This document shows positions 3,556-57,962 of a stretch of DNA of 64,000 nucleotides, piece by piece. The DNA is taken from the NCBI RefSeq assembly GCF_044324875.1, contig NZ_CP172185.1. One strand, written 5' to 3'. The position numbers and the translations under genes are program-made. The number at the start of each line of letters is the position of its first letter. The stretch's first letter is position 1. This DNA comes from Escherichia coli. GTDB taxonomy: Bacteria > Pseudomonadota > Gammaproteobacteria > Enterobacterales > Enterobacteriaceae. The notes below the pieces were generated by a model that saw nothing but the letters and a program-made list of their open reading frames with translations, did no database searches and had not been told where the DNA came from.

Positions 3556-4203
3556 GTGAAGCTATACATTTACGATCACTGCCCTTACTGCCTCAAAGCC
3601 CGCATGATTTTCGGCCTGAAAAATATCCCCGTCGAATTACATGTTCTGCTCAACGACGACGCAGAAACACCCACCCGGATGGTCGGTCAAAAACAGGTTC
3701 CCATTCTGCAAAAAGATGACAGCCGCTATATGCCAGAAAGCATGGACATCGTTCACTATGTCGATAAACTCGACGGCAAACCGTTACTGACCGGCAAACG
3801 TTCCCCTGCCATTGAAGAGTGGCTGCGCAAGGTCAATGGCTACGCCAACAAACTGCTGTTGCCGCGTTTTGCCAAATCGGCATTTGATGAGTTTTCTACT
3901 CCCGCCGCGCGCAAATATTTCGTCGACAAGAAAGAGGCCAGCGCGGGTAATTTTGCCGACCTGCTGGCCCACTCTGACGGTCTGATTAAGAATATCAGCG
4001 ATGATTTACGTGCGCTGGACAAACTGATCGTCAAACCGAACGCCGTGAATGGCGAACTTTCGGAAGATGATATTCAGCTATTTCCGCTCCTGCGTAATCT
4101 GACGCTGGTAGCCGGAATCAACTGGCCAAGCCGCGTTGCTGATTACCGCGATAATATGGCGAAACAGACACAAATCAATTTGTTATCATCAATGGCGATT
4201 TAA
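3556..4203 (+). CDS. grxB: glutaredoxin 2
   Basis: 215 aa with a GTG start. CPYC redox motif at residues 9-12 (MKLYIYDHCPYCLKARM...). Matches recalled GrxB. Confidence 0.95.
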   Translation: MKLYIYDHCPYCLKARMIFGLKNIPVELHVLLNDDAETPTRMVGQKQVPILQKDDSRYMPESMDIVHYVDKLDGKPLLTGKRSPAIEEWLRKVNGYANKLLLPRFAKSAFDEFSTPAARKYFVDKKEASAGNFADLLAHSDGLIKNISDDLRALDKLIVKPNAVNGELSEDDIQLFPLLRNLTLVAGINWPSRVADYRDNMAKQTQINLLSSMAI

Positions 4204-4336
4204 TCCTGACCCGCCGCGGCAGCCTGTATTCGCGGGTTGCCGCCGTTTTCAGTTTTTTCTGCTGGCGCGTTTATCGCTGGTGACACATGCTGCGTTGTGT
4301 CAGGATATTGACGCAGATTTCATGTCGAGGACTACC

Positions 4337-4897
4337 ATGAACAAGTTTTTATTTGCCGCTGCATTGATCGTCAGTGGCCTGCTCGTTGGCTGTAATCAAC
4401 TCACCCAATACACCATCACCGAACAAGAAATTAACCAGTCGCTTGCGAAACATAATAATTTCTCAAAAGATATCGGTTTACCCGGCGTGGCTGACGCCCA
4501 TATTGTTCTGACAAACCTGACCAGCCAAATTGGTCGCGAAGAGCCGAATAAGGTTACCCTAACCGGAGACGCCAATCTGGACATGAACTCCCTGTTCGGT
4601 AGCCAGAAAGCGACCATGAAACTGAAGCTGAAAGCGCTGCCCGTGTTTGATAAAGAAAAAGGTGCGATCTTCCTGAAAGAGATGGAAGTGGTCGATGCGA
4701 CGGTACAACCGGAAAAAATGCAAACGGTGATGCAAACGTTGCTCCCCTATTTGAACCAGGCATTACGCAATTACTTTAACCAGCAACCAGCTTACGTCCT
4801 GCGCGAAGATGGCAGCCAGGGCGAAGCAATGGCGAAGAAACTGGCGAAAGGCATTGAAGTGAAGCCAGGCGAAATTGTCATTCCGTTTACTGATTAA
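4337..4897 (+). CDS. yceB: lipoprotein YceB (DUF1439)
   Basis: Track ORF 4136..4897 trimmed to ATG 4337. MNKFLFAAALIVSGLLVGC has a lipobox. 186 aa. Confidence 0.9.
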   Translation: MNKFLFAAALIVSGLLVGCNQLTQYTITEQEINQSLAKHNNFSKDIGLPGVADAHIVLTNLTSQIGREEPNKVTLTGDANLDMNSLFGSQKATMKLKLKALPVFDKEKGAIFLKEMEVVDATVQPEKMQTVMQTLLPYLNQALRNYFNQQPAYVLREDGSQGEAMAKKLAKGIEVKPGEIVIPFTD

Positions 4898-4902
4898 TCA
4901 CG

Positions 4903-4928
4903 AGGGCGCATTCGCGCCCTTTATTTTT
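4903..4928 (+). terminator. rho-independent terminator after yceB
   Basis: Stem AGGGCGC/GCGCCCT with loop ATTC, followed by TTATTTTT. Confidence 0.75.
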
Positions 4929-5002
4929 CGTGCAAAGGAAAACGTTTCCGCTTATCCTTTGTGTCCGGCAAAAACATCCCTTCAGCCGGAGCATAGAGAT
5001 TA

Positions 5003-6049
5003 ATGACTGCACCATCCCAGGTATTAAAGATCCGCCGCCCAGACGACTGGCACCTTCACCTCCGCGATGGCGACATGTTAAAAACTGTCGTGCCGTATAC
5101 CAGCGAAATTTATGGACGGGCTATCGTAATGCCCAATCTGGCTCCGCCCGTGACCACCGTTGAGGCTGCCGTGGCTTATCGCCAGCGTATTCTTGACGCC
5201 GTACCTGCCGGGCACGATTTCAGCCCGCTGATGACCTGTTATTTGACAGATTCACTAGACCCTAATGAGCTTGAGCGTGGATTTAACGAAGGCGTGTTCA
5301 CCGCTGCCAAACTTTACCCGGCAAACGCAACCACTAACTCCAGTCACGGCGTGACGTCAGTTGACGCAATCATGCCGGTACTTGAGCGCATGGAAAAAAT
5401 CGGTATGCCGTTACTGGTGCATGGTGAAGTGACACATGCAGATATCGACATTTTTGATCGTGAAGCGCGCTTTATTGAAAGCGTGATGGAACCGCTGCGC
5501 CAGCGCCTGACTGCGCTGAAAGTCGTTTTTGAGCACATCACCACCAAAGATGCTGCCGACTATGTCCGTAACGGAAATGAACGGCTGGCTGCCACCATCA
5601 CTCCGCAGCATCTGATGTTTAACCGCAACCATATGCTGGTTGGTGGCGTGCGTCCACACCTGTATTGTCTACCCATCCTCAAACGCAATATTCACCAACA
5701 GGCACTGCGTGAACTGGTCGCCAGCGGTTTTAATCGCGTATTCCTCGGTACGGATTCTGCGCCGCATGCACGTCATCGCAAAGAGAGCAGCTGCGGCTGC
5801 GCGGGCTGCTTCAACGCCCCCACCGCGCTGGGCAGTTACGCTACCGTCTTTGAAGAGATGAATGCTCTGCAGCACTTTGAAGCATTCTGTTCTGTAAACG
5901 GCCCGCAGTTCTATGGCTTGCCGGTCAACGACACATTCATCGAACTGGTCCGCGAAGAGCAACAGGTTGCTGAAAGCATCGCATTGACTGATGACACACT
6001 GGTGCCATTCCTCGCCGGGGAAACGGTACGCTGGTCCGTTAAACAATAA
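5003..6049 (+). CDS. pyrC: dihydroorotase
   Basis: 348 aa. Metal-binding HxH motif in [13 protein letters not shown]. Matches recalled PyrC end to end. Confidence 0.97.
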
Positions 6050-6083
6050 AAATCCTAGCTTCCTGTTGTCATTAGGTTATTTT

Positions 6084-6103
6084 ACCTGTATAAATAACCA
6101 GTA
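6084..6103 (+). promoter_or_regulatory. LexA (SOS) box of dinI
   Basis: ACCTGTATAAATAACCAGTA fits CTGT-N8-ACAG. It lies 20 nt upstream of the dinI ATG. Confidence 0.8.
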
Positions 6104-6122
6104 TATTCAACAGGGGGCTATT

Positions 6123-6368
6123 ATGCGAATTGAAGTCACCATAGCGAAAACTTCTCCATTGCCAGCTGGGGCTATTGACGCCCTGGCTGGCGAACTTTCC
6201 CGCCGTATTCAGTATGCGTTTCCTGATAATGAAGGCCACGTATCGGTACGTTATGCCGCAGCGAATAATTTATCGGTTATTGGCGCAACAAAAGAAGATA
6301 AACAGCGCATTAGCGAAATTCTCCAGGAAACGTGGGAAAGCGCCGATGACTGGTTTGTCAGCGAATAA
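6123..6368 (+). CDS. dinI: DNA damage-inducible protein I
   Basis: Track ORF 5991..6368 trimmed to ATG 6123. 81 aa, MRIEVTIAKTSPLPAGAIDALAGEL..., matches recalled DinI. Confidence 0.95.
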   Translation: MRIEVTIAKTSPLPAGAIDALAGELSRRIQYAFPDNEGHVSVRYAAANNLSVIGATKEDKQRISEILQETWESADDWFVSE

Positions 6369-6389
6369 TATGCAGTGATTTTTGTTTTT

Positions 6390-6412
6390 GCCGGGTCGCC
6401 CCGGCTTTTTTA
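6390..6412 (+). terminator. rho-independent terminator after dinI
   Basis: GCCGGG-tcgc-CCCGGC followed by TTTTTT. Confidence 0.75.
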
Positions 6413-6657
6413 TTTTACTTACAAATTTTGAGTACAAAATTTCTACACTTCCTCAAAATAATTGCACAATATGCTAAAAAAATATGAATGACATGCTGTT
6501 TTATTGTTCATATAAATCTTAAAAGCAGAAATTTATCTGTTCCCCCCTTTAAAAATTCGGTGAATACCCTTACTTATTGGTATACTGAAGTTGCTTCAGA
6601 TAAAAACGCATTGAACCTCGAATAACGTTGTCTAGTAACACGAATTAGGGGGCCATG

Positions 6658-7026: not shown

Positions 7027-8145
7027 ATGAAATACGATCTCATCATTATTGGCAGCGGTTCCGTAGGCGCTGCCGCCGGGTATTATGCAACCCGTGCCGG
7101 TTTAAACGTGCTAATGACCGACGCCCATATGCCACCACATCAACACGGCAGCCACCACGGCGATACGCGATTAATTCGCCATGCTTATGGTGAAGGCGAA
7201 AAGTATGTCCCGCTGGTTCTCCGCGCGCAAACGCTGTGGGATGAACTCTCCCGCCACAACGAAGAAGATCCCATTTTTGTACGCTCTGGCGTCATTAACC
7301 TTGGCCCGGCTGATTCCACATTTCTCGCCAACGTCGCCCACAGCGCCGAACAATGGCAACTCAACGTTGAAAAGCTCGATGCGCAAGGGATTATGGCCCG
7401 CTGGCCGGAAATACGCGTCCCGGACAACTACATCGGCTTATTTGAGACTGATTCCGGTTTTTTGCGCAGCGAACTGGCGATTAAAACCTGGATCCAACTG
7501 GCGAAGGAAGCGGGCTGTGCGCAGCTGTTCAACTGCCCGGTCACCGCAATTCGTCATGACGATGATGGCGTAACTATTGAAACGGCTGACGGTGATTATC
7601 AGGCGAAAAAAGCGATTGTCTGCGCGGGAACATGGGTAAAAGACCTGCTCCCGGAGCTGCCTGTCCAGCCCGTACGCAAAGTATTTGCCTGGTATCAGGC
7701 CGATGGTCGCTATAGCGTGAAGAATAAATTCCCGGCGTTTACCGGTGAACTGCCCAATGGCGATCAATATTATGGTTTTCCGGCAGAAAACGACGCGTTG
7801 AAGATTGGCAAACATAACGGAGGCCAGGTTATCCATTCAGCGGATGAACGTGTTCCGTTTGCGGAAGTGGTCAGCGATGGTTCGGAAGCCTTCCCGTTCT
7901 TGCGCAATGTATTGCCGGGTATCGGTTGCTGCCTGTACGGCGCTGCCTGCACCTATGATAATTCGCCTGACGAAGATTTTATTATCGATACCCTACCCGA
8001 CCACGATAATACACTGCTCATTACCGGCCTGAGTGGGCACGGTTTTAAATTTGCGTCAGTTTTAGGGGAAATAGCTGCCGATTTTGCGCAAGACAAAAAA
8101 AGCGATTTTGATTTGACGCCATTCAGGCTTTCCCGCTTCCAATAA
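7027..8145 (+). CDS. solA: N-methyl-L-tryptophan oxidase
   Basis: 372 aa. FAD-binding GSGSVG at the N-terminus. Matches recalled SolA. Confidence 0.96.
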
Positions 8146-8153
8146 TCATCATT

Positions 8154-8180
8154 ACGGCCTCCAGAATGAGGCCGTTTTTA
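8154..8180 (+). terminator. rho-independent terminator after solA
   Basis: ACGGCCTC-cagaat-GAGGCCGT followed by TTTTT. Confidence 0.7.
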
Positions 8181-8306
8181 CAGGAGTATTTAATGCGTCG
8201 GCTGTTGCACTATCTCATCAATAATATTCGCGAGCATCTGATGCTTTATCTTTTTCTCTGGGGATTGTTGGCAATTATGGATCTGATCTATGTGTTTTAT
8301 TTTTAG
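8166..8306 (+). CDS. yceO: small membrane protein YceO
   Basis: Below the track cutoff. 46 codons, [46 protein letters not shown], as I recall for K-12 YceO. An alternative start is ATG 8193. Confidence 0.6.
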
Positions 8307-8566
8307 TTTTCCGCACTGACATAAACTGACAAATATTTAATCTCCCTTTCATTTAGCGTGAAAAATTGAATGAGATTATTCCTGCTTCTACAGCACTCAC
8401 CAGACATCTCTGATGCTGAACCCACTAAACTTATGAAGATTCTTTCATTATTAATTCAAAATTATTGAAATAAAAATAAATATCATTCAATTTGTTATTT
8501 TTGTGTTGCAATTCATTCTCCGACACGCCATTTTCTTTCTCTCGCAAATTCGTTTTGGATGCACTT

Positions 8567-29940: not shown

Positions 29941-30028
29941 GGTGAGGTGTCCGAGTGGCTGAAGGAGCACGCCTGGAAAGTGTGTATACGGCAACGTATC
30001 GGGGGTTCGAATCCCCCCCTCACCGCCA
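29941..30028 (+). tRNA. serX: tRNA-Ser (anticodon GGA)
   Basis: 88 nt, GGTGAGGTGTCCGAGTGG...TTCGAATCCCCCCCTCACCGCCA. Long variable arm, anticodon loop CUGGAAA, encoded CCA. Confidence 0.95.
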
Positions 30029-48547: not shown

Positions 48548-50219
48548 ATCATTTTGGGCTTTAGTGTGGCGTTATCTTTTTTCTGCATTACGTTCCACGC
48601 TAAAGCCTTTACATCTGTGCTCGCTGTGTATCGCACTGGGTGTTCTTACACCTGTCATAACGTTATTCTGGCTGGCAACAGATGCAGACAGTTCGCAATG
48701 GAGCGGTTTTTTAACGTTTGTGCTACCTTCCGCTCTGCAGAATACCGTTATTCTGTTAACGGGTGTTGCTGTAATGACATGCGTTCTTGGTGTGGGGTGC
48801 GCCTGGGCAGTGACTGTCTGGGATTTTCCCGGCCGAAAAATGCTCAGCTGGGCATTAGTGTTACCTCTGGCCATGCCTGCCTATATTGTTGCTTTTGCAT
48901 GGCTCGATCTCCTGCATCCCCTGGGGCCTCTGCAAAATTTTATCCGTCTTTTATCGGGATTTGACAGTCCCCGTCAGTTTCGTCTGCCGGATTTGCGCTC
49001 CCTTCCCGGAGCGATAATATTACTCGGTCTTGTACTGTATCCTTATGTCTACCTGACCTGCCGACCGGTGTTTATCAATCAGTCCGCTCACTTACTGGAG
49101 GCAGCACGAACATTAGGTTGTGGCCCTGTCTCTGCTTTTTTCCGGGTAACGCTACCTCTGGCACGCCCAGCAATAGTGACAGGTATGAGTCTGGCCCTTC
49201 TGGAAACCCTGAACGACATTGGTGCATCTGAATTTCTCGGTATCCGGACAATCACAGTAACAGTCTACACCACATGGATATCACGCTCTGATCTTGCCGG
49301 TGCTGCACAAATTGCCGGCATAGTTCTGACATTTGTCTTCATGATTCTGGGTCTTGAATTTTTGTTCCGGAGAAAACAGGTATTCAGTAGTCGCAGTATG
49401 CGGGGAATACAACAAATCAGGATTTATGGCTGGCGTGGATGGTTGCTGTGCAGCATTACAGCACTGCCCGTTATTCTGGGATTTTGCGCACCTGTATTAT
49501 TCCTGGGATGGGAAAGTGCAAAGCGTCTCGGAGAAGGGATTACGATATCTTCATCATTGCTGTCAGCACTGAAAAATACATTGTTTCTCGCATCCGGTAC
49601 GACCCTGATTGTATCAGGGGTCAGTTTACTGGTGGTCTGGAGCGCACGGCACAGTGTACTGAACAGCCGTTTCATCGAATTCCGACGAACGGTCATGCAC
49701 CTGGCATCTTCAGGATATGCTGTTCCCGGTACTATTCTTGCTATCGGCTTTCTGCCGCCTGCAATGCTGGTTGATCACTGGCTCGCTGGTCTTCTTAATA
49801 TCAGCGGCCTTCCCCTCATGTCTGCAGGTATACTGTTAGTTATTTGCTGTGCGATTCGTTTCCTGGCCATTTCAACCGGAGCGCTTGATTCAGCCCTTGG
49901 TCGCATACCGCCGTCACTGGAACAGGCATCACGATTACTGGGAGAAAATGGCGCAGGGACTTTTGTCAGAGTTCATTTGCCATTACTTCGCCCTGCTCTG
50001 ATCAGCAGTGCGCTGCTGGTTTTCTCCGACGTGATGAAAGAACTGCCGACCACCTTACTGCTACGACCTGTTAACTTTGAGACCCTGTCCACACTCCTGT
50101 ATGCGGAAGCGGCACGTGGAACCTACGAACAGGGCGCAATTGCTGCACTGTTAATCGTACTTGCCGGCATACTCCCTGTGATTTTATTAGTACGCAGGCA
50201 AATGAACAGTCACCACTAA
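48531..50219 (+). CDS. Fe(3+) ABC transporter permease (FbpB/AfuB family, duplicated MetI-like domains)
   Basis: 562-aa multi-TM ORF. Two EAA-type loops (LEAARTLGCGPVSAFFRVTLPLARPA and EQASRLLGENGAGTFVRVHLPLLRPA). The TTG start at 48531 is uncertain. Confidence 0.85.
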   Translation: MGSINKSFWALVWRYLFSALRSTLKPLHLCSLCIALGVLTPVITLFWLATDADSSQWSGFLTFVLPSALQNTVILLTGVAVMTCVLGVGCAWAVTVWDFPGRKMLSWALVLPLAMPAYIVAFAWLDLLHPLGPLQNFIRLLSGFDSPRQFRLPDLRSLPGAIILLGLVLYPYVYLTCRPVFINQSAHLLEAARTLGCGPVSAFFRVTLPLARPAIVTGMSLALLETLNDIGASEFLGIRTITVTVYTTWISRSDLAGAAQIAGIVLTFVFMILGLEFLFRRKQVFSSRSMRGIQQIRIYGWRGWLLCSITALPVILGFCAPVLFLGWESAKRLGEGITISSSLLSALKNTLFLASGTTLIVSGVSLLVVWSARHSVLNSRFIEFRRTVMHLASSGYAVPGTILAIGFLPPAMLVDHWLAGLLNISGLPLMSAGILLVICCAIRFLAISTGALDSALGRIPPSLEQASRLLGENGAGTFVRVHLPLLRPALISSALLVFSDVMKELPTTLLLRPVNFETLSTLLYAEAARGTYEQGAIAALLIVLAGILPVILLVRRQMNSHH

Positions 50220-50234
50220 AGGAACCCAACCACC

Positions 50235-50912
50235 ATGTCAGAAATTGCCCTGAGTCTTAATGATGTTCATGTTGTTTATACCAGAAGCAGACAGGTCGTG
50301 TTACAGGGTTTTTCAATGTCCGTTCATAAAGGTGAACTTGTATGTCTGCTTGGCGTTTCAGGTTGTGGAAAAACAACCGTATTACGAACTGTAGCAGGCC
50401 TGGAACGATTACAACAAGGTGAAATATTCATATCACAACGCTGTGTAGCCGGAGCCGGAATTCATCTCCCCCCGGAAAAGCGCAGGGTCGGAATGGTCTT
50501 TCAGGAATATGCTCTGTTTCCCCACCTGACAGTAACACAAAATGTAGCCTTTGGTCTGCGCCATCTGCCTTATGAACTACAGCATGCCAGAGTCACTGAA
50601 CTTCTGAAAATGGTTGAATTATTATCCTGTGCAAAGCGCTATCCTCATGAACTCTCAGGTGGACAGCAACAACGTATTGCACTTGCCAGAGCACTGGCCC
50701 CGGCCCCTGATATTTTGTTACTGGATGAGCCATTTTCCAGTCTGGATAAACAAACCAGTGAATACCTAGTGAAAGAAGTACGGGACCTGTTACGTAGTTC
50801 AGGTCAGACAGCCCTGATCGTTACTCATAATGAATCAGAAGCACTCGAAATATCAAACCGTATTTGTATCATGACGGAGGGTAATATAAGTTCGGTTCAG
50901 TCTGTGGTCTGA
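50235..50912 (+). CDS. ABC transporter ATP-binding protein (FbpC/AfuC-like), short form lacking the C-terminal regulatory domain
   Basis: 225 aa. Walker A GVSGCGKTT, signature LSGGQQQR, Walker B ILLLDEP, H-loop VTHN. It ends about 25 residues after the H-loop. Confidence 0.85.
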   Translation: MSEIALSLNDVHVVYTRSRQVVLQGFSMSVHKGELVCLLGVSGCGKTTVLRTVAGLERLQQGEIFISQRCVAGAGIHLPPEKRRVGMVFQEYALFPHLTVTQNVAFGLRHLPYELQHARVTELLKMVELLSCAKRYPHELSGGQQQRIALARALAPAPDILLLDEPFSSLDKQTSEYLVKEVRDLLRSSGQTALIVTHNESEALEISNRICIMTEGNISSVQSVV

Positions 50913-51514
50913 GACGTAACCGCACATTCAGGATCCCCTGTTCGTCATGGAAGCTGTATTATGTAACTATATGGAGGCATAGCAGATATTGTTGAAGAAA
51001 TACATCAAAAACACTCACATTTCTGGTACAACAGGAGTTGTAGATTTAATGATTATTGGGACGAAGTTACTACAGAAAAGCTGTACCGGGAACAGGTATG
51101 GTAGTTCCTTGTCACGTGTGGATTAAATGAGCATAATGCAGATCAATTACAAAAGGCATTTCGTAATAGCTCTGTTGTTGATTCGGTTACCATGATGGCT
51201 GTGGCAAGAGCCACCATGTGACTATACATGATATAATTATTTGTGTGATGTTGTTATACCTGAACAACAGGCATGAGATAATGGAAAAAATTATACATAT
51301 AACTCGGCTTTCCCATACTCCACTACAGAACAGTATATGATTCTGAACATTTCAATCCAGGCGCATTACATAACTATATTACATGTAACTATCTGGCCCT
51401 CAAATCATCGAGAGAATTGTTTAAAGTCAGCAGTCATAATCTGAATATAGATCATTATCACATAATTTAATTCTTAATTCACTACATTTTCCCTTGAATC
51501 CGGTATAATAAGAC

Positions 51515-51576
51515 AGAGCACATGGCTGATGCTTTGTTTCGGTGTGGATAATCTGGTGGCGTCGGCTATGTGCTCT
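51515..51576 (+). repeat. long imperfect inverted repeat (19-bp stem, 24-nt loop) in a gene-less gap
   Basis: AGAGCACATGGCTGATGCT (51515-51533) pairs with GGCGTCGGCTATGTGCTCT (51558-51576). There are 15 Watson-Crick pairs plus 4 G-U pairs, and the G-U pairs exist only if the + strand is the RNA. Confidence 0.6.
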
Positions 51577-51720
51577 CAACAGTTAACTTATTATGAATAC
51601 TATTATCAATACAGGTTTTACATAAAAAAATAAAAAGCATCTCCTGATATCAGCCCAGTCTCTTTGGGCTAACCAGAATTATACATAAGCTATGCAGATA
51701 TTAATTTGCATACAAAACCA

Positions 51721-52203
51721 TTATTTTCTTGAGCACACTATACTAATGTATCCCAGAAGAGGTCCTGTGCATAATCCTGTTGCTGCCCATAATACAGCAA
51801 GTGAAATATCAGGACCATCTGTATCCGGATAAAATCCTCCATAATAAACAGCAAATACAGTAGAGTATGCATTGAATGCAGGTAAACTACTGTTCATGCA
51901 CGGTATCTGAAGGAGTAAAAGAAGAACATACACTGTTATTATTACTGATATAATGATTGCCAACATGGCAGAAATGTGCAGGGATATCATGTAATTTATA
52001 GCAGCAATACATAACACAGACGTTGCTATACCGGGAAGTAATGAAGCATAAATTTTCTTTAATATGTCAGGCGTCGCTCCCAGAGCATAGTACCATGCCC
52101 AGCCAATAAATATAGCCCACACAGGAATATTAATCCCCGGCCATGAAGCCAGGCATGACATCCCTGCTAACAGGGCTATGGTAAGATTCATCGGTAATTT
52201 CAT
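51721..52203 (-). CDS. DUF1097-like inner membrane protein (YcdZ paralogue)
   Basis: 160 aa, about 5 TM segments. Last gene of the carboxylase operon. Resembles YcdZ (26806..27297) in length and pattern. Confidence 0.7.
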   Translation of the reverse strand: MKLPMNLTIALLAGMSCLASWPGINIPVWAIFIGWAWYYALGATPDILKKIYASLLPGIATSVLCIAAINYMISLHISAMLAIIISVIITVYVLLLLLQIPCMNSSLPAFNAYSTVFAVYYGGFYPDTDGPDISLAVLWAATGLCTGPLLGYISIVCSRK

Positions 52204-52217
52204 TTCAGACGCACCTG

Positions 52218-53204
52218 TTATGAGCCATAAGATAATGAATTAATGAGAAGGTTGAGTCTTTCATTAAATTCTTTACGGATTTCCAGAGCTTTATCCATAC
52301 TGACTTGTGAAAATGTCACACTGGAGCCGGGTGCAAGTTGAGCCAGAATATCGAGATCAGTACTCACTACTGTCCCCACTGTCATATATCCCCCTCCTGA
52401 TACAGCATCCCTGTGCAAAACTATTGGTGTGCTTCCAGAGGGAACCTGAATTGATCCCACGGGATAACAGGCATCAACGATATTTGATGGATCTGAACCA
52501 GCACCAAATGGCGGGTGCCGATCAACAAAATTAAGTGAGCGCCCTCCCTGAAACCTGAAACCTGTTCTGTCTGAATCCTTACTGATCTTCCATACATCAT
52601 CAAAAAAACTTTCAACTGATTCCTGTTTCAGGCGATGGATATACATTCCGGGTACAACACGTAATTCATTTTCTTTAGTAAAAACTGGACGTAACTCATC
52701 TGGCAGAGTGTAATTTATACGCCCTTTATTACATATTGCTTCCTGTACGGGTAATTCATCTCCGGCCTGTAACCGACGTCCTTTATAACCACCAAGACTG
52801 CCAAGGAGGTAAGTAGAACGACTTCCGGCAATAACAGGGACATTAATACCTCCCGCGATGGCAAGGTAACAGCGTACACCCACCGTGGTGTATGCGATTT
52901 TTAATATCTGTCCTTTCCGGGCTAACAGGGATGTATTCACCGGAACACTCTGATTATCCAGGGTCACCGTAAAAGGGGCACCGCTGACTGCAAAAAGAGT
53001 ATCCTGCTCAAACAAGAGTTCGGGCCCCAGTAATGTGCATTCCAGCGCTGCATCAAACGGGTGATTACCGACAAGCAAATTGGCGGTAACTAACCCTGTA
53101 CGATCTAATGCACCGGATGGCGGGATCCCGAGATGATAAAAGCCTTCTCGTCCTCCGTCCTGAACGGACGTGGATAATCCGGGCGTCAATACTTTAATTC
53201 CCAT
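52218..53204 (-). CDS. KipA/PxpC-like protein (allophanate hydrolase subunit 2 family, AHS2)
   Basis: Track ORF to 53252 trimmed to ATG 53204. 328 aa. N-terminus VLTPGLSTSVQDGGREGFYHLGIPPSGALD parallels the PxpC/YbgK N-terminus. Confidence 0.85.
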   Translation of the reverse strand: MGIKVLTPGLSTSVQDGGREGFYHLGIPPSGALDRTGLVTANLLVGNHPFDAALECTLLGPELLFEQDTLFAVSGAPFTVTLDNQSVPVNTSLLARKGQILKIAYTTVGVRCYLAIAGGINVPVIAGSRSTYLLGSLGGYKGRRLQAGDELPVQEAICNKGRINYTLPDELRPVFTKENELRVVPGMYIHRLKQESVESFFDDVWKISKDSDRTGFRFQGGRSLNFVDRHPPFGAGSDPSNIVDACYPVGSIQVPSGSTPIVLHRDAVSGGGYMTVGTVVSTDLDILAQLAPGSSVTFSQVSMDKALEIRKEFNERLNLLINSLSYGS

Positions 53205-54078
53205 ACAGTTCTCCCAGTAAATTTTTAGTATAATCTTCAGGATTTTCTTCAAATGCGTTCAAATCAAAATTTACAGGCCTGATAAGTAATTCAAAATTAC
53301 CAGATTCCACATCACTTATACATTGATTATATTGTTCAGTATTGATCGCCCTGAACTTAATGATGTCCCCTGCCCGGAAAAACACCATAGAGTCTTTGAA
53401 ATATGATAATTTCTGTTCTGTGTCATAAATCGGAGCTGGTGTTATACCGAACAATTGATACCCACCTGCCCCCCGGACTGGATATATAGCCCCGAAGCAC
53501 CCGCCATGACCAACAGAATGTTTTGGTGTATCAGTTCTGGGAACAAGATATTTTGGAACCTGGATTTGCTTTTTCCGGTCAACCATCTGATACATAAAAG
53601 GCAGCCCGGCAACGAAGCCAACCATAGAAACAAACCAGGGACTTGAATGATGGGCCTCAATAAACGTCTGAACATCCGGATATCCGTTTATTTCAGCAGC
53701 ATACTCAAGATCGGTTAATGCCGGGTTTTGATGATTATTCCGGAACCGCATCAGGGTTTCATGAGTCCATGGATCATTATACAATACAGGAATTTCAATT
53801 ATACGTGTCTGTAGTGTCATTTCTCCATTCCCGGAGAGCACATTAACATTTCGTATCTGTTGTAACAAATCATCAGGGTGTATAATGTCGGGATTAAATC
53901 TTATCTGACATGATGCATTTGCAAGGCAAATATCGAGCACACCATTAATATTTAATGATTCTATTTTTCTCGTAAGAGACAAGCTGTGAAAAAATGCTTT
54001 AAGAGACATTTCCTCACTGACTTCGATGAAAAGATGCTCATCAGCACCAAATGTATAGCGCAAATTTATATCAGTCAT
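53194..54078 (-). CDS. KipI/PxpB-like protein (allophanate hydrolase subunit 1 family, AHS1)
   Basis: 294 aa. Cyclophilin-like core pattern (...EIPVLYN...GFVAGLPFM...GGCFGAIYPVRGAGGYQLFG...). 11-nt overlap with the next gene. Confidence 0.8.
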   Translation of the reverse strand: MTDINLRYTFGADEHLFIEVSEEMSLKAFFHSLSLTRKIESLNINGVLDICLANASCQIRFNPDIIHPDDLLQQIRNVNVLSGNGEMTLQTRIIEIPVLYNDPWTHETLMRFRNNHQNPALTDLEYAAEINGYPDVQTFIEAHHSSPWFVSMVGFVAGLPFMYQMVDRKKQIQVPKYLVPRTDTPKHSVGHGGCFGAIYPVRGAGGYQLFGITPAPIYDTEQKLSYFKDSMVFFRAGDIIKFRAINTEQYNQCISDVESGNFELLIRPVNFDLNAFEENPEDYTKNLLGELYGN

Positions 54079-54087
54079 ACAGGTTCC

Positions 54088-55449
54088 TCATTTAAATGCA
54101 CCGGTATTCAGCCAGTCTTCAAGCGTTTTATTATGAAACTGAGCATTTCTGAAAAACTCAGCTGATAATAATGCTTCATGAAGAGGTATAGTTGTATGAA
54201 CGCCTTCTATTTGCATATTACCAAGGGTCTCCCGGGCAAGACTTATCGTTTTTTCTCTGCTGTCAGTATGAATAATAAGTTTTGCCAGTAAAGAATCATA
54301 CCAGAGAGGCATCTTATACCCTTCAAACATGTGAGTATCGACTCTTATTCCCTGCCCTTCAGGTATCTGCAATACCGATATTGTTCCGGGACTGGGCATA
54401 AAACCATTGTAAGGATTTTCTGCATTAATCCTCATTTCAATTGCAGCTCCCTGTAACGTAATCTCATCCTGTCCAAACGACAGAGAGTCGCCCCCGGCAA
54501 TTCTCAGCATCCAGTCGATAATATCAATGCCTGTGACCATTTCTGTAACCGGATGTTCAACCTGAATCCGCGTATTCATTTCAATAAAAAAGAATTCCCC
54601 GCTCCGGTCATCGACCAGGTACTCAATAGTTCCTGCGCTTGAATAATTCAGCATTCTGGCGAGATTCAGTGCACTCTGACATAAGGCCTCACGTAGTGAC
54701 GCTGAAACAGAAGGCGATGGCGCTTCTTCTGTCACTTTTTGTCTTTTTCTCTGCAGAGAACACTCTCGTTCAAACAGGTGAACGATGTTTTTTCCGTCTC
54801 CAAGGATCTGAACTTCAACATGACGGGCTTCCGGTATATAACGTTCCAGATATACACCATCGTGCCCGAAAGCTGCTTTTGCTTCAGCACGCGCTACTGT
54901 ATATTCATGCACCAGCTGTTCCGGAGAATGTACAATCCGTATCCCCTTCCCGCCTCCCCCGGCCGAGGCCTTTATCAATAAAGGATATCCGGTAATATCC
55001 GATGCTACTGATAATGCCTCCTCAGGGCTTATAACCTCGCCATTTGAGCCTGGTACAACCGGGACACCTGCCTTTATCGCGCAATCTCTCGCGATTGCTT
55101 TATCCCCCATTTGCTCAATAATCTGAGGAGATGGCCCAACAAAAATAAGCCCTGCATCGAGCACCGCACGGGCAAAAGACGCATTCTCCGACAGAAAACC
55201 ATATCCGGGATGAATGGCCTGAGCGCCAGACTGAAGGGCTGCATCAATTATCTTCTTTCCGTCCAGATAACTGTCATCGGCACGGGATTTACCTATGACA
55301 ATAACTTCATCGGCGCTCTTTGCCGGAAGAGAATTGATGTCTGATTCGCTACATGCCAGCACCGTTTTTATATTCAGCTTCTTTGCACTTCGTATAATTC
55401 GTAATGCAATCTCACCTCTGTTGGCAATAAGCAGTTTTTGAATACTCAT
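54088..55449 (-). CDS. biotin carboxylase (AccC-like ATP-grasp)
   Basis: 453 aa, MSIQKLLIANRGEIALRIIRSAKKL...GYGFLSEN...EMNTRIQVEHPVTE..., collinear with AccC. Confidence 0.92.
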   Translation of the reverse strand: MSIQKLLIANRGEIALRIIRSAKKLNIKTVLACSESDINSLPAKSADEVIVIGKSRADDSYLDGKKIIDAALQSGAQAIHPGYGFLSENASFARAVLDAGLIFVGPSPQIIEQMGDKAIARDCAIKAGVPVVPGSNGEVISPEEALSVASDITGYPLLIKASAGGGGKGIRIVHSPEQLVHEYTVARAEAKAAFGHDGVYLERYIPEARHVEVQILGDGKNIVHLFERECSLQRKRQKVTEEAPSPSVSASLREALCQSALNLARMLNYSSAGTIEYLVDDRSGEFFFIEMNTRIQVEHPVTEMVTGIDIIDWMLRIAGGDSLSFGQDEITLQGAAIEMRINAENPYNGFMPSPGTISVLQIPEGQGIRVDTHMFEGYKMPLWYDSLLAKLIIHTDSREKTISLARETLGNMQIEGVHTTIPLHEALLSAEFFRNAQFHNKTLEDWLNTGAFK

Positions 55450-55621
55450 GCTCAGTTCCTTATATTATTTCTATGGTAGCCAGTACCTGACCAGGTTCCA
55501 CTTCCTCCCCATTCTCCACCTTAAACTGGATAGACTGGCCCCCTGAATCTCCAGACAACCAGTATCACTTAAATAAGTGATAGTCTTAATACTAGTTTTT
55601 AGACTAGTCATTGGAGAACAG

Positions 55622-55987
55622 ATGATTGATGTCTTAGGGCCGGAGAAACGCAGACGGCGTACCACACAGGAAAAGATCGCAATTGTTCAGCAGAGCTTTG
55701 AACCGGGGATGACGGTCTCCCTCGTTGCCCGGCAACATGGTGTAGCAGCCAGCCAGTTATTTCTCTGGCGTAAGCAATACCAGGAAGGAAGTCTTACTGC
55801 TGTCGCCGCCGGAGAACAGGTTGTTCCTGCCTCTGAACTTGCTGCCGCCATGAAGCAGATTAAAGAACTCCAGCGCCTGCTCGGCAAGAAAACGATGGAA
55901 AATGAACTCCTCAAAGAAGCCGTTGAATATGGACGGGCAAAAAAGTGGATAGCGCACGCGCCCTTATTGCCCGGGGATGGGGAGTAA
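55622..55987 (+). CDS. insC: IS2 OrfA (InsC)
   Basis: 121 aa, [29 protein letters not shown].... An A6G slippery run at 55939-55945 lies near its end. Confidence 0.95.
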
Positions 55988-56850
55988 GCTTAGTCAGCCG
56001 TTGTCTCCGGGTGTCGCGTGCGCAGTTGCACGTCATTCTCAGACGAACCGATGACTGGATGGATGGCCGCCGCAGTCGTCACACTGATGATACGGATGTG
56101 CTTCTCCGTATACACCATGTTATCGGAGAGCTGCCAACGTATGGTTATCGTCGGGTATGGGCGCTGCTTCGCAGACAGGCAGAACTTGATGGTATGCCTG
56201 CGATCAATGCCAAACGTGTTTACCGGATCATGCGCCAGAATGCGCTGTTGCTTGAGCGAAAACCTGCTGTACCGCCATCGAAACGGGCACATACAGGCAG
56301 AGTGGCTGTGAAAGAAAGTAATCAGCGATGGTGCTCTGACGGGTTCGAGTTCCGCTGTGATAACGGAGAAAAACTGCGAGTCACGTTCGCGCTGGACTGC
56401 TGTGACCGTGAGGCACTGCACTGGGCGGTCACTACGGGCGGCTTCAACAGTGAAACAGTACAGGACGTCATGCTGGGAGCGGTGGAACGCCGCTTCGGCA
56501 ACGAGCTTCCGGCGTCTCCAGTAGAGTGGCTGACGGATAATGGTTCATGCTACCGGGCTAATGAAACACGGCAGTTTGCCCGGATGTTGGGGCTTGAACC
56601 GAAGAGCACGGCGGTGCGGAGTCCGGAGAGTAACGGCATAGCAGAGAGCTTCGTGAAAACGATAAAGCGTGACTACATCAGTGTCATGCCCAAACCAGAC
56701 GGGTTAACGGCAGCAAAGAACCTTGCAGAGGCGTTCGAGCATTATAACGAATGGCATCCGCATAGTGCACTGGGTTATCGCTCGCCACGGGAATATCTAC
56801 GGCAGCAAGCCAGTAATGGGTTAAGTGATAACAGGTGTCTGGAAATATAG
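55945..56850 (+). CDS. insD: IS2 OrfB (InsD) transposase catalytic part
   Basis: 301 aa in the -1 frame relative to insC. DDE integrase core (…WCSDGF…WLTDNGS…ESNGIAESF…). Confidence 0.95.
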
Positions 56851-57058
56851 GGGCAAATCCACTGGATATTAGTCCCGGTTGTTTCAGCATGAATTTCGTT
56901 AAACTGCTTCATTATTTCAATCAACCCAATGACGGTACTCTCCTGAACAGTGTCACCATTCTCCAGAAACGGGGCACTATCAGGTGCTGGTTTCCGATAA
57001 AATACACCAGGTAAAGGTGAAAGAATTTCTGTAACAGCCATAACATCCTCCATGTATA

Positions 57059-57820
57059 TCAGTTTTGAGAATTTACACTTATGTCTGCCTCACGTAAGGC
57101 TTTATTTATTGCAATCAGAAGAGATAAGGCACCGGGCGTATCACTATGGACACAGACAGAAGAGAAATGAATGTCAATATCCTGATCTTCTACAGTACGA
57201 ACTTTTCCCTCCAGACAGGCACGCAGCACTTTTTTTGCGACATCATCAGGATTAAGAGGTTCAGTTCTCCGTATAAATACAATGGAACCGCTTTGATCAT
57301 AATCCCTGTCGGCATAAAACTCACAAATAACAGGATGTCCGATTTGCGTCGCTTCTTTCCAGATGGCACTACCATACATGCAATATATTCTCAATTCAGG
57401 CGCATAACTATGAAGCGTTGAGACAAAATGCTTTGCAGCATCCCGATCATGAGCAAGATGCATATACAACGCGCCATGAGGCTTAACATGGTTTACAGGC
57501 ACATTGTGTAATGTGGCAAATTCACGCAAGGCCCCCAGCTGATAAATCATGTCATTGGTGATTTCCTCTGCGGTGCAGTGAATATGACGCCGGCCAAAAC
57601 CAGCCAGATCACGATAACCGGGATGAGCACCGACAGACACACCACTGTCACGGGCGCTGATTATTGTACGGTGCATAATCCCCGGATCACCTGCATGAAA
57701 ACCTGTCGCTATATTCGCTGAGGAGATGTATGGCATAATATCAATATCCCGGATATCTCCGAGAGTCCATGCTCCAAAGCTTTCCCCCATATCAGAGCTG
57801 ATATCAATACTGCGAAGCAT
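57059..57820 (-). CDS. LamB/YcsF-family protein (PxpA-like, 5-oxoprolinase subunit A family)
   Basis: Track ORF to 57868 trimmed to ATG 57820 (GGAGGT SD). 253 aa, MLRSIDISSDMGESFGAWTLGD...HPGYRDLAGFGRR...VKPHGALY, typical of LamB_YcsF. Confidence 0.88.
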   Translation of the reverse strand: MLRSIDISSDMGESFGAWTLGDIRDIDIMPYISSANIATGFHAGDPGIMHRTIISARDSGVSVGAHPGYRDLAGFGRRHIHCTAEEITNDMIYQLGALREFATLHNVPVNHVKPHGALYMHLAHDRDAAKHFVSTLHSYAPELRIYCMYGSAIWKEATQIGHPVICEFYADRDYDQSGSIVFIRRTEPLNPDDVAKKVLRACLEGKVRTVEDQDIDIHFSSVCVHSDTPGALSLLIAINKALREADISVNSQN

Positions 57821-57962
57821 TAAAACCTCCGTCTGACAAATACGGTAACAGTATGTCATGTAGCACATTTGTTTCTTTATTGTAAATTATTATTTTTCTA
57901 TGGTAATATATTAAATTTATTTATAATTACTGTTGCAAAAATATCTTTATCAGGAAAATTTG

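Follow-up and report, generated by a model that had tools for sequence, protein, structure and literature searches.

IS2, an insertion sequence (IS) of the IS3 family, transposes by a copy-out/paste-in route via a minicircle, and its insertions are classical Rho-dependent polar mutations; the gal operon provides the classical cases (Yarulin and Gorlenko 1985, a reference listed in PMC12095673). Published features of the element are ends of 41 and 42 bp, TA and CA termini and the two reading frames OrfA and OrfB (PMC3299598). Hybrid promoters involving IS2 are known at ampC, acrEF and neoR, and the outward -35 element of the IS3 family (that of IS911, to which IS2 is likened) is located in the right inverted repeat (IRR) and needs a -10 element in the flanking DNA (PMC9330008). 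Among enzymes related to the genes considered here, PxpABC paralogues open lactam rings, and the relative PP_2920-2 of P. putida is a butyrolactam hydrolase (bioRxiv 10.1101/2021.12.09.472016). The present analysis concerns a stretch of 64,000 nucleotides of Escherichia coli DNA, taken as a whole and called the window below, in which a copy of IS2 divides the gene of a small biotin carrier protein within an operon for a putative biotin-dependent enzyme. The reading that we regard as very probable is that IS2 has inactivated the carrier, that polarity would lower the expression of the genes downstream, and that the event was recent and belongs to one lineage.

The IS2 insertion and its empty site

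IS2 was found inserted in the biotin-carrier gene, between codons 60 and 61, with duplication of the target CTGGA and with the element antisense to the operon. The features of the element and of the divided gene are listed with their window positions and strands.

55526 to 55530, no strand: left CTGGA of the target-site duplication (a single CTGGA is present at the empty site of 11 genomes)
56862 to 56866, no strand: right CTGGA of the target-site duplication
55531 to 56861, plus strand: complete IS2 (IS3 family), 1331 bp, assigned by identity to other IS2 copies
55531 to 55572, plus strand: left inverted repeat (IRL), 42 bp, with the atypical TA end, length and terminus as published for IS2
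56821 to 56861, plus strand: IRR, 41 bp, ending in CA-3', length and terminus as published for IS2
55622 to 55987, plus strand: insC/orfA, 121 amino acids (aa), with HTH_Tnp_1 by Pfam, identical to K-12 InsC1
55939 to 55945, plus strand: slippery site A AAA AAG for a -1 frameshift giving the OrfAB transposase, the frames being placed to join
55945 to 56850, plus strand: insD/orfB, 301 aa, with HTH_21, rve and rve_3 by Pfam, eight substitutions from K-12 InsD1
56862 to 57041, minus strand: 5' fragment of the biotin-carrier gene, codons 1 to 60, including the biotinyl lysine Lys45 in EIMKQ
55460 to 55525, minus strand: 3' fragment of the biotin-carrier gene, codons 61 to 81 and the TAA stop, holding F61 and G72

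The positions that the original prediction had given for a 1331-bp IS2 and for the two CTGGA copies were correct to the base, and the identity of the element was established by comparison. Its length and identity, the termini of IRL and IRR, the two overlapping frames with the slippery site and the 5-bp duplication all agree with IS2; duplications of this size also flank the copies in K-12 (ATTAC) and in E. coli MS 119-7 (ATGAT). The element starts with TAGACTGG (at greater length TAGACTGGCCCCC) and its right end reads GGGGCAAATCCA, with AAATCCA as the final letters, while the sequences across the two borders are GGGGCAAATCCA followed by CTGGATATTAG and CTTAAACTGGA followed by TAGACTGGCC. IRL and IRR are imperfect inverted repeats. 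Over its full length the window copy, the only IS2 in the window, matched copies from many complete E. coli genomes at 100% identity, and near-full-length IS2 was present in 4,059 of the 5,426 complete E. coli genomes that formed the comparison set. Alignment with IS2A of K-12 MG1655 was colinear at 1331 of 1331 positions, with 25 mismatches (98.1% identity); InsC was unchanged, and the eight substitutions fell in InsD. The span from the start of insC to the end of insD (55622-56850, 1229 nt) equals the length of a coding sequence annotated with a 'programmed frameshift' for an IS3-family element. With both frames open and both ends intact, this IS2 copy is apparently an active element.

Read on the minus strand, 57053-56862 gives MEDVMAVTEILSPLPGVFYRKPAPDSAPFLENGDTVQESTVIGLIEIMKQFNEIHAETTGTNIQ, and the sequence from 55525 downward gives FKVENGEEVEPGQVLATIEII and then a stop. 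Joining 56862 to 55525 produced a single open frame in which HAETTGTNIQ is followed directly by FKVENGEEVEPGQVLATIEII and the stop codon. The TAA lies at 55462-55460, 10 nt ahead of the ATG of the biotin carboxylase gene at 55449, just as had been predicted. A 1300-bp query, reconstructed by taking out IS2 and one CTGGA, was then found as an empty site in 11 of the 5,426 complete genomes (ten with 100.0% identity, one with 99.9%), and in these IS-free genomes the Prokaryotic Genome Annotation Pipeline (PGAP) calls the restored frame as the 81-aa protein WP_000301513.1. The search for IS-free alleles that had been proposed along with the original prediction thus yielded an intact gene with the expected length in its annotation. 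By comparison of these sequences the reconstruction is far beyond chance, the chief reason being the empty site in the 11 genomes and not the match of a 5-mer. The prediction of an 81-codon frame holds for the annotated and best-supported start, the second ATG at 57041, although the first in-frame ATG upstream would give 85 codons. The shorter frame is backed by PGAP, by the NCBIfam equivalog model NF005457 (residues 1-79 on positions 1-79 of 80) and by 80 homologues of 76-82 aa.

The occupied locus was covered by no genome in the complete set, and none of the 11 island-bearing genomes had the insertion. Among metagenome contigs the empty site was found once and the occupied junction was not found. 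That none of the 11 genomes shows the insertion is what an assembly artefact, a repeat placed wrongly, would also produce. Such an artefact is hardly credible here, as the exact IS2 ends and the perfect 5-bp duplication, present as a single copy in the empty site, are the signature of transposition; the insertion moreover sits in a contig of 5.75 Mb, and an independent draft assembly is interrupted 4 nt away from this junction.

The restored carrier protein

The joined protein matched the Pfam family Biotin_lipoyl (PF00364, cut-off 22.1 bits) at positions 2-73 of 73 with 51.5 bits, and NF005457 (carriers of about 80 aa named 'acetyl-CoA carboxylase', cut-off 87 bits) at positions 1-79 of 80 with 121.3 bits. 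Its residues 6-79 align without gaps, across the junction, to the biotinyl domain of the E. coli biotin carboxyl carrier protein (BCCP) as solved in 1BDO and relatives. K45 falls on the lysine of the EAMKM motif of 1BDO, the biotinylated residue, and the 'thumb' stretch is covered by the aligned pair KPAPDSAP and TPSPDAKA. A comparison with other species drew on 80 loci, each with a carrier homologue, from Proteobacteria and Actinobacteria. Only 4% of these homologues were gapped at position 59, that is at the junction, and residues E42, M44, K45, F61 and G72, among others, were invariant; F61 and G72 are encoded beyond the insertion, in the 3' fragment. The continuous biotinyl domain that had been predicted, and its alignment to BCCP homologues, were therefore borne out by 1BDO, by the full-length Biotin_lipoyl match and by the 80 homologues.

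The closest carrier among the 80 loci was only 58% identical to the E. coli protein. Against the AccB model TIGR00531 the joined protein scored 77.1 bits, below the cut-off of 115.2 bits, and matched profile positions 80-155 only. Judged by these profile and alignment results, the interrupted gene encodes a stand-alone biotinyl carrier that is BCCP-like and distinct from canonical AccB.

The chimeric product and the predicted loss of the carrier

Two open reading frames (ORFs) cross the borders of the element, and both had been predicted to be fusion artefacts.

56775 to 57053, minus strand: chimeric 92-aa ORF, made up of 64 native codons, counted from the upstream ATG, and 28 IS2-antisense codons
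55471 to 55665, minus strand: spurious 64-aa ORF with a GTG start inside IS2, crossing the left junction

The first is a true chimera. The carrier frame enters IS2 for 28 codons and stops at 56777-56775, so that the product has 92 aa, or 88 aa from the annotated start; it lacks the last 21 residues of the carrier, two of which are invariant in the family, and has gained 28 unrelated ones. It corresponds to WP_395762507.1 / XJR43554.1, which occurs on one contig of 5,752,694 bp. Its Biotin_lipoyl match was reduced to positions 2-52 of 73 (32.5 bits), and on NF005457 it covered positions 1-61 of 80 with 88.7 bits, 1.7 bits over the cut-off. Because the chimera clears this cut-off, it bears the RefSeq name 'acetyl-CoA carboxylase', without any mark of a disrupted gene. 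From this annotation the carrier of the genome would wrongly be counted as present in pangenome or metabolic inference. For the second ORF the prediction did not hold in the same sense, since it spans the junction out of the carrier frame: its stop is at 55471-55473, in another frame than the carrier remnant with its stop at 55460-55462, and a look-up of its 64-aa product in public assemblies found no gene call. It is a by-product of the insertion and not a carrier fusion protein.

The biotinyl fold is a closed barrel in which the N- and C-terminal strands pair with each other, and biotinylation is abolished when the C-terminus is truncated. The truncated chimera would therefore be unable to fold as a biotinyl domain or to be biotinylated; as it cannot be expected to form this domain, the enzyme would be left without a carrier and would be dead, whatever transcription does. 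That the carrier function has been lost is predicted with high confidence.

The predicted effect on the downstream genes

The carrier is encoded by the second gene of a compact minus-strand operon with intergenic gaps or overlaps of 9-17 nt. The other genes of the operon and the divergent regulator are given below.

57059 to 57820, minus strand: PxpA-like (LamB/YcsF) protein, gene 1 of the operon, upstream of the insertion
54088 to 55449, minus strand: biotin carboxylase, 453 aa, encoded directly downstream of the insertion, 703.7 bits on NF009471 (cut-off 686 bits)
53194 to 54078, minus strand: PxpB/KipI-like carboxyltransferase (CT) subunit, CT_C_D, urea carboxylase profile positions 804-1079
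52218 to 53204, minus strand: PxpC/KipA-like CT subunit, CT_A_B, urea carboxylase profile positions 449-767
51721 to 52203, minus strand: DUF1097 membrane protein, with which the operon ends in E. coli
57963 to 58898, plus strand: divergent LysR-family regulator

IS2 lies antisense to this operon, IRR being on the promoter side and IRL facing the biotin carboxylase gene. In the mechanism proposed, an apparently active IS2 inserted between codons 60 and 61 of the 81-codon gene and duplicated CTGGA; translation of operon transcripts would then end 85 nt into IS2 and be followed by 1,325 nt of untranslated, C-rich RNA, and Rho-dependent termination in the IS2 RNA would lower the amounts of biotin carboxylase, of both CT subunits and of the DUF1097 protein. 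The distance from the chimera stop to the biotin carboxylase start is indeed 1,325 nt. Its overall C/G ratio is 1.16, and 78-nt windows with a C/G of 1.5 or more, used as a proxy for Rho substrates, made up 43 of 209 windows in this RNA as against 0-2% in the operon's own genes. A polar effect on biotin carboxylase, KipI, KipA and DUF1097 is plausible and is held with moderate confidence, because of the untranslated C-rich RNA, the classical polarity of IS2, the finding of no promoter-like site reading outward from IRL, and an IRR that points away from these genes.

The converse possibility, that IS2 drives the downstream genes from an outward or hybrid promoter, has precedents at ampC, acrEF and neoR (PMC9330008). 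It is nevertheless very improbable at this locus: the outward -35 element would lie in IRR (PMC9330008), which is turned towards pxpA and antisense to the operon, whereas the end that faces the biotin carboxylase gene is IRL, and no promoter-like site directed outward from IRL came up in the scan; and even with the downstream genes transcribed, the enzyme would be without its carrier.

The insertion might also kill the carrier without being polar, so that the downstream proteins are still made, through read-through or an internal promoter, and are either idle or served by AccB in trans. A promoter-like match (TGGTCA-18-AATAAT, 55493-55464, minus strand) lies in the 3' remnant of the carrier gene shortly before the biotin carboxylase ATG and could give some downstream expression; a scan of the minus strand inside IS2 found no intrinsic-terminator-like site, and the biotin carboxylase gene is equipped with a ribosome-binding region of its own, 10 nt past the stop of the carrier frame. 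However, the number of promoter-like matches in this region was at chance level (five found, 4.5 expected from shuffles), and the long untranslated RNA with its many C-over-G windows, together with the classical Rho-dependent polarity of IS2, speaks for termination. A non-polar insertion is therefore considered rather unlikely.

Age and distribution of the insertion

The flanks of the insertion were compared with the IS-free islands over window positions 40000-55525 (15.5 kb) and 56862-64000 (7.1 kb). A recent insertion is indicated because these flanks are 99.9-100% identical, because the IS is 100% identical to other copies and because the duplication is perfect; all three are in line with the recent event of the original prediction. 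Its further claim, that the insertion is confined to this strain, was nearly supported. In favour are the absence of the insertion from all 11 island-bearing genomes and the occurrence of the chimera on one contig, as opposed to at least 1000 contigs with the intact 81-aa carrier, in a look-up covering about 15 billion proteins in which the count for the intact protein is a lower bound. In disfavour is a draft assembly, GCA_049006665.1, whose 7,774-bp contig DBGYFX010000125.1 matches the window at 100% identity between positions 64000 and 56866 and breaks at 56866, inside CTGGA and 4 nt short of the IS2 end, a place at which a repeat would make an assembler stop. This assembly, which may come from the same strain or from a relative, may carry the same insertion or a neighbouring, independent one. 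Taken together, the comparisons fit a recent event that is confined to one lineage.

Disruption of the same gene was also seen elsewhere. In GCA_044068535.1 (contig JBIPKM010000001.1) an IS1 of 769 bp adjoins codon 16 of this 246-bp gene, and in GCA_053259995.1 there is a 1-nt deletion in codon 34; furthermore, two draft contigs break within the gene, that of GCA_049006665.1 and another starting at window position 57008. These alleles would be expected if loss of the carboxylase were selected, or if the gene were a hot spot for insertion, the IS2 copy being then one of several recurrent inactivations. As the intact protein occurs on so many contigs, disrupted alleles are a small minority; the draft breaks and the single-base deletion are possibly technical, and the other IS insertions of the island are intergenic. 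Recurrent inactivation of this kind is accordingly judged improbable, and a single recent IS2 event in one lineage is preferred.

The IS1 copy of GCA_044068535.1 occupies positions 4251-5019 of the retrieved locus (about window position 56995) and represents an independent IS-mediated disruption. On its far side lies inverted DNA from the lldP/PapB side, so that pxpA and the promoter are cut off from the rest of the operon. The deletion in GCA_053259995.1, from CAGGAGAGT to CAGG-GAGT, lies near window position 56940 (about position 3990 of the retrieved locus), and only a 38-aa ORF is called there; the frameshift allele may be genuine, or the missing base may reflect an error in sequencing.

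The operon and its island

Biotin carboxylase aligned to residues 2-442 of urea carboxylase (TIGR02712), and the separate subunits each remained far under the cut-off of 1303.85 bits of this model. The models of the 5-oxoprolinase subunits gave 73.1 bits for PxpB (TIGR00370, cut-off 145.55 bits) and 223.5 bits for PxpC (NF045499, cut-off 500 bits), while the PxpA subfamily model NF003814 was passed with 278.9 bits (cut-off 226 bits). From these profile scores the cassette looks like a urea-carboxylase-type biotin-dependent enzyme in separate polypeptides, with a PxpA subunit. The order PxpA, carrier, biotin carboxylase, CT_C_D and CT_A_B was found in 74 of the 80 other-species loci, which are all those with five genes detected; the remaining six, some of them on short or truncated contigs, had a partial cassette in the same order, and no locus among the 80 had a differing gene order.

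A divergent LysR gene stood beside the cassette in 36 of these loci. DUF1097, MocR, an amino-acid transporter and an ABC binding protein were near it in none of the 80, and GabT in four. A literature search found no experimental paper describing the five-gene cassette. Opening of a lactam ring to feed the adjacent GabT was considered as a function, prompted by the PxpABC-type butyrolactam hydrolase of P. putida and by Aspergillus lamA/lamB; this lactam-to-GABA (gamma-aminobutyric acid) idea lost its support, GabT being near the cassette in only four of the 80 loci and the other neighbours named above in none.

The island that carries the operon starts at the tRNA-Ser(GGA) gene at 29941-30028, next to ghrA, and extends over at least 34 kb, onward to position 64000. 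It is rare, being present in the 11 complete genomes with the empty site. Although the island stretches searched are 99.9-100% identical to the IS-free islands between hosts, the core genes of the window are at most 99.3% identical to those of any genome in the E. coli collection. A near-identical island in hosts with core genes at least 0.7% apart from those of the window thus points to a recent horizontal spread of the island.

Besides the operon, the island of TUM1886 holds antirestriction and RadC genes, a CbtA/YeeU toxin-antitoxin module and, beside ISEc8, a pseudogene of Ag43, and the distance from the tRNA gene to the operon is about 2.6 kb greater in the window than in TUM1886. The island of E. 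coli MS 119-7 has an IS2 variant (96.8% identical to the window copy; positions 5094-6424 of the retrieved locus) that is flanked by the repeat ATGAT and separates the LysR gene from the MocR-like gene. In E. coli TUM9803 a different IS3-family element (about positions 7200-8539 of the retrieved locus) lies in the intergenic region between the amino-acid transporter gene and lldD.

Discussion

Inactivation of the carrier by IS2, with a predicted polarity on the genes behind it and a recent origin in one lineage, is the reading that we hold to be very probable. Some points weigh against it. The chimera keeps Lys45 and passes NF005457, if by 1.7 bits, so that the loss of biotinylation is an inference, and the polar effect is likewise inferred. 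The promoter-like match at 55493-55464 is placed upstream of the biotin carboxylase start, and the contig break in GCA_049006665.1 bears on the restriction to one lineage. AlphaFold2, run on the restored 81-aa protein as a single sequence, gave a mean predicted local distance difference test (pLDDT) score of 55, with residues 1-29 below 50; because this model was too poor, the gapless 1BDO alignment was used instead.

The significance beyond the strain is small: a function of a rare accessory operon was recently lost, in all likelihood, through an IS that is well known in E. coli. The strain would, however, be a natural knock-out of a conserved uncharacterised biotin-dependent cassette, for which the IS-free islands with 99.9-100% identical flanks, for instance those of TUM1886 or LH50-c, could serve as controls. 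A much bolder proposal, which we think quite unlikely, sees in the cassette an uncharacterised biotin-dependent enzyme with a novel substrate and in its natural knock-outs the sign of recurrent disruption, owing to a cost or counter-selection in some E. coli niches. If this were true, the substrate would be a lactam, an amide or a guanidine-like compound, and three natural knock-outs with isogenic-island controls would be at hand, by IS2 (here), by IS1 (GCA_044068535.1) and by frameshift (GCA_053259995.1).

Compared with E. coli AccB, residues 6-79 of the carrier match the biotinyl domain, in which both the thumb stretch and the biotinyl lysine are covered. Unlike AccB, the carrier has only 81 aa, with neither the N-terminal domain nor the linker, and it is encoded in an accessory island beside subunits of the urea carboxylase type. 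The operon shares with urea carboxylase and PxpABC the biotin carboxylase, CT and biotinyl parts and the PxpA/LamB subunit; it differs from urea carboxylase, a single polypeptide of about 1200 aa, in that its parts are five separate polypeptides, and from the PxpABC 5-oxoprolinase, which is without biotin components, in that it has them.

The event itself is a textbook IS2 insertional inactivation, of a kind already known. It resembles yaiX::IS2A of K-12 MG1655, in which a 1331-bp IS2 lies in a coding sequence, is flanked by a 5-bp repeat (ATTAC there) and leaves the gene in two fragments. The target gene is another one, 25 of the 1331 positions differ, and the K-12 locus is a split pseudogene in a reference genome, whereas the window insertion is absent from the 11 island genomes. 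As in the classical gal insertions, where Rho cuts distal expression, IS2 lies within an operon, but here the polarity is deduced from a C-rich stretch of 1,325 nt that goes untranslated. With the activating insertions at ampC, acrEF and neoR the locus shares the same element beside a gene start (PMC9330008); in contrast to these, the downstream genes abut IRL and not IRR, and the expected effect is silencing.

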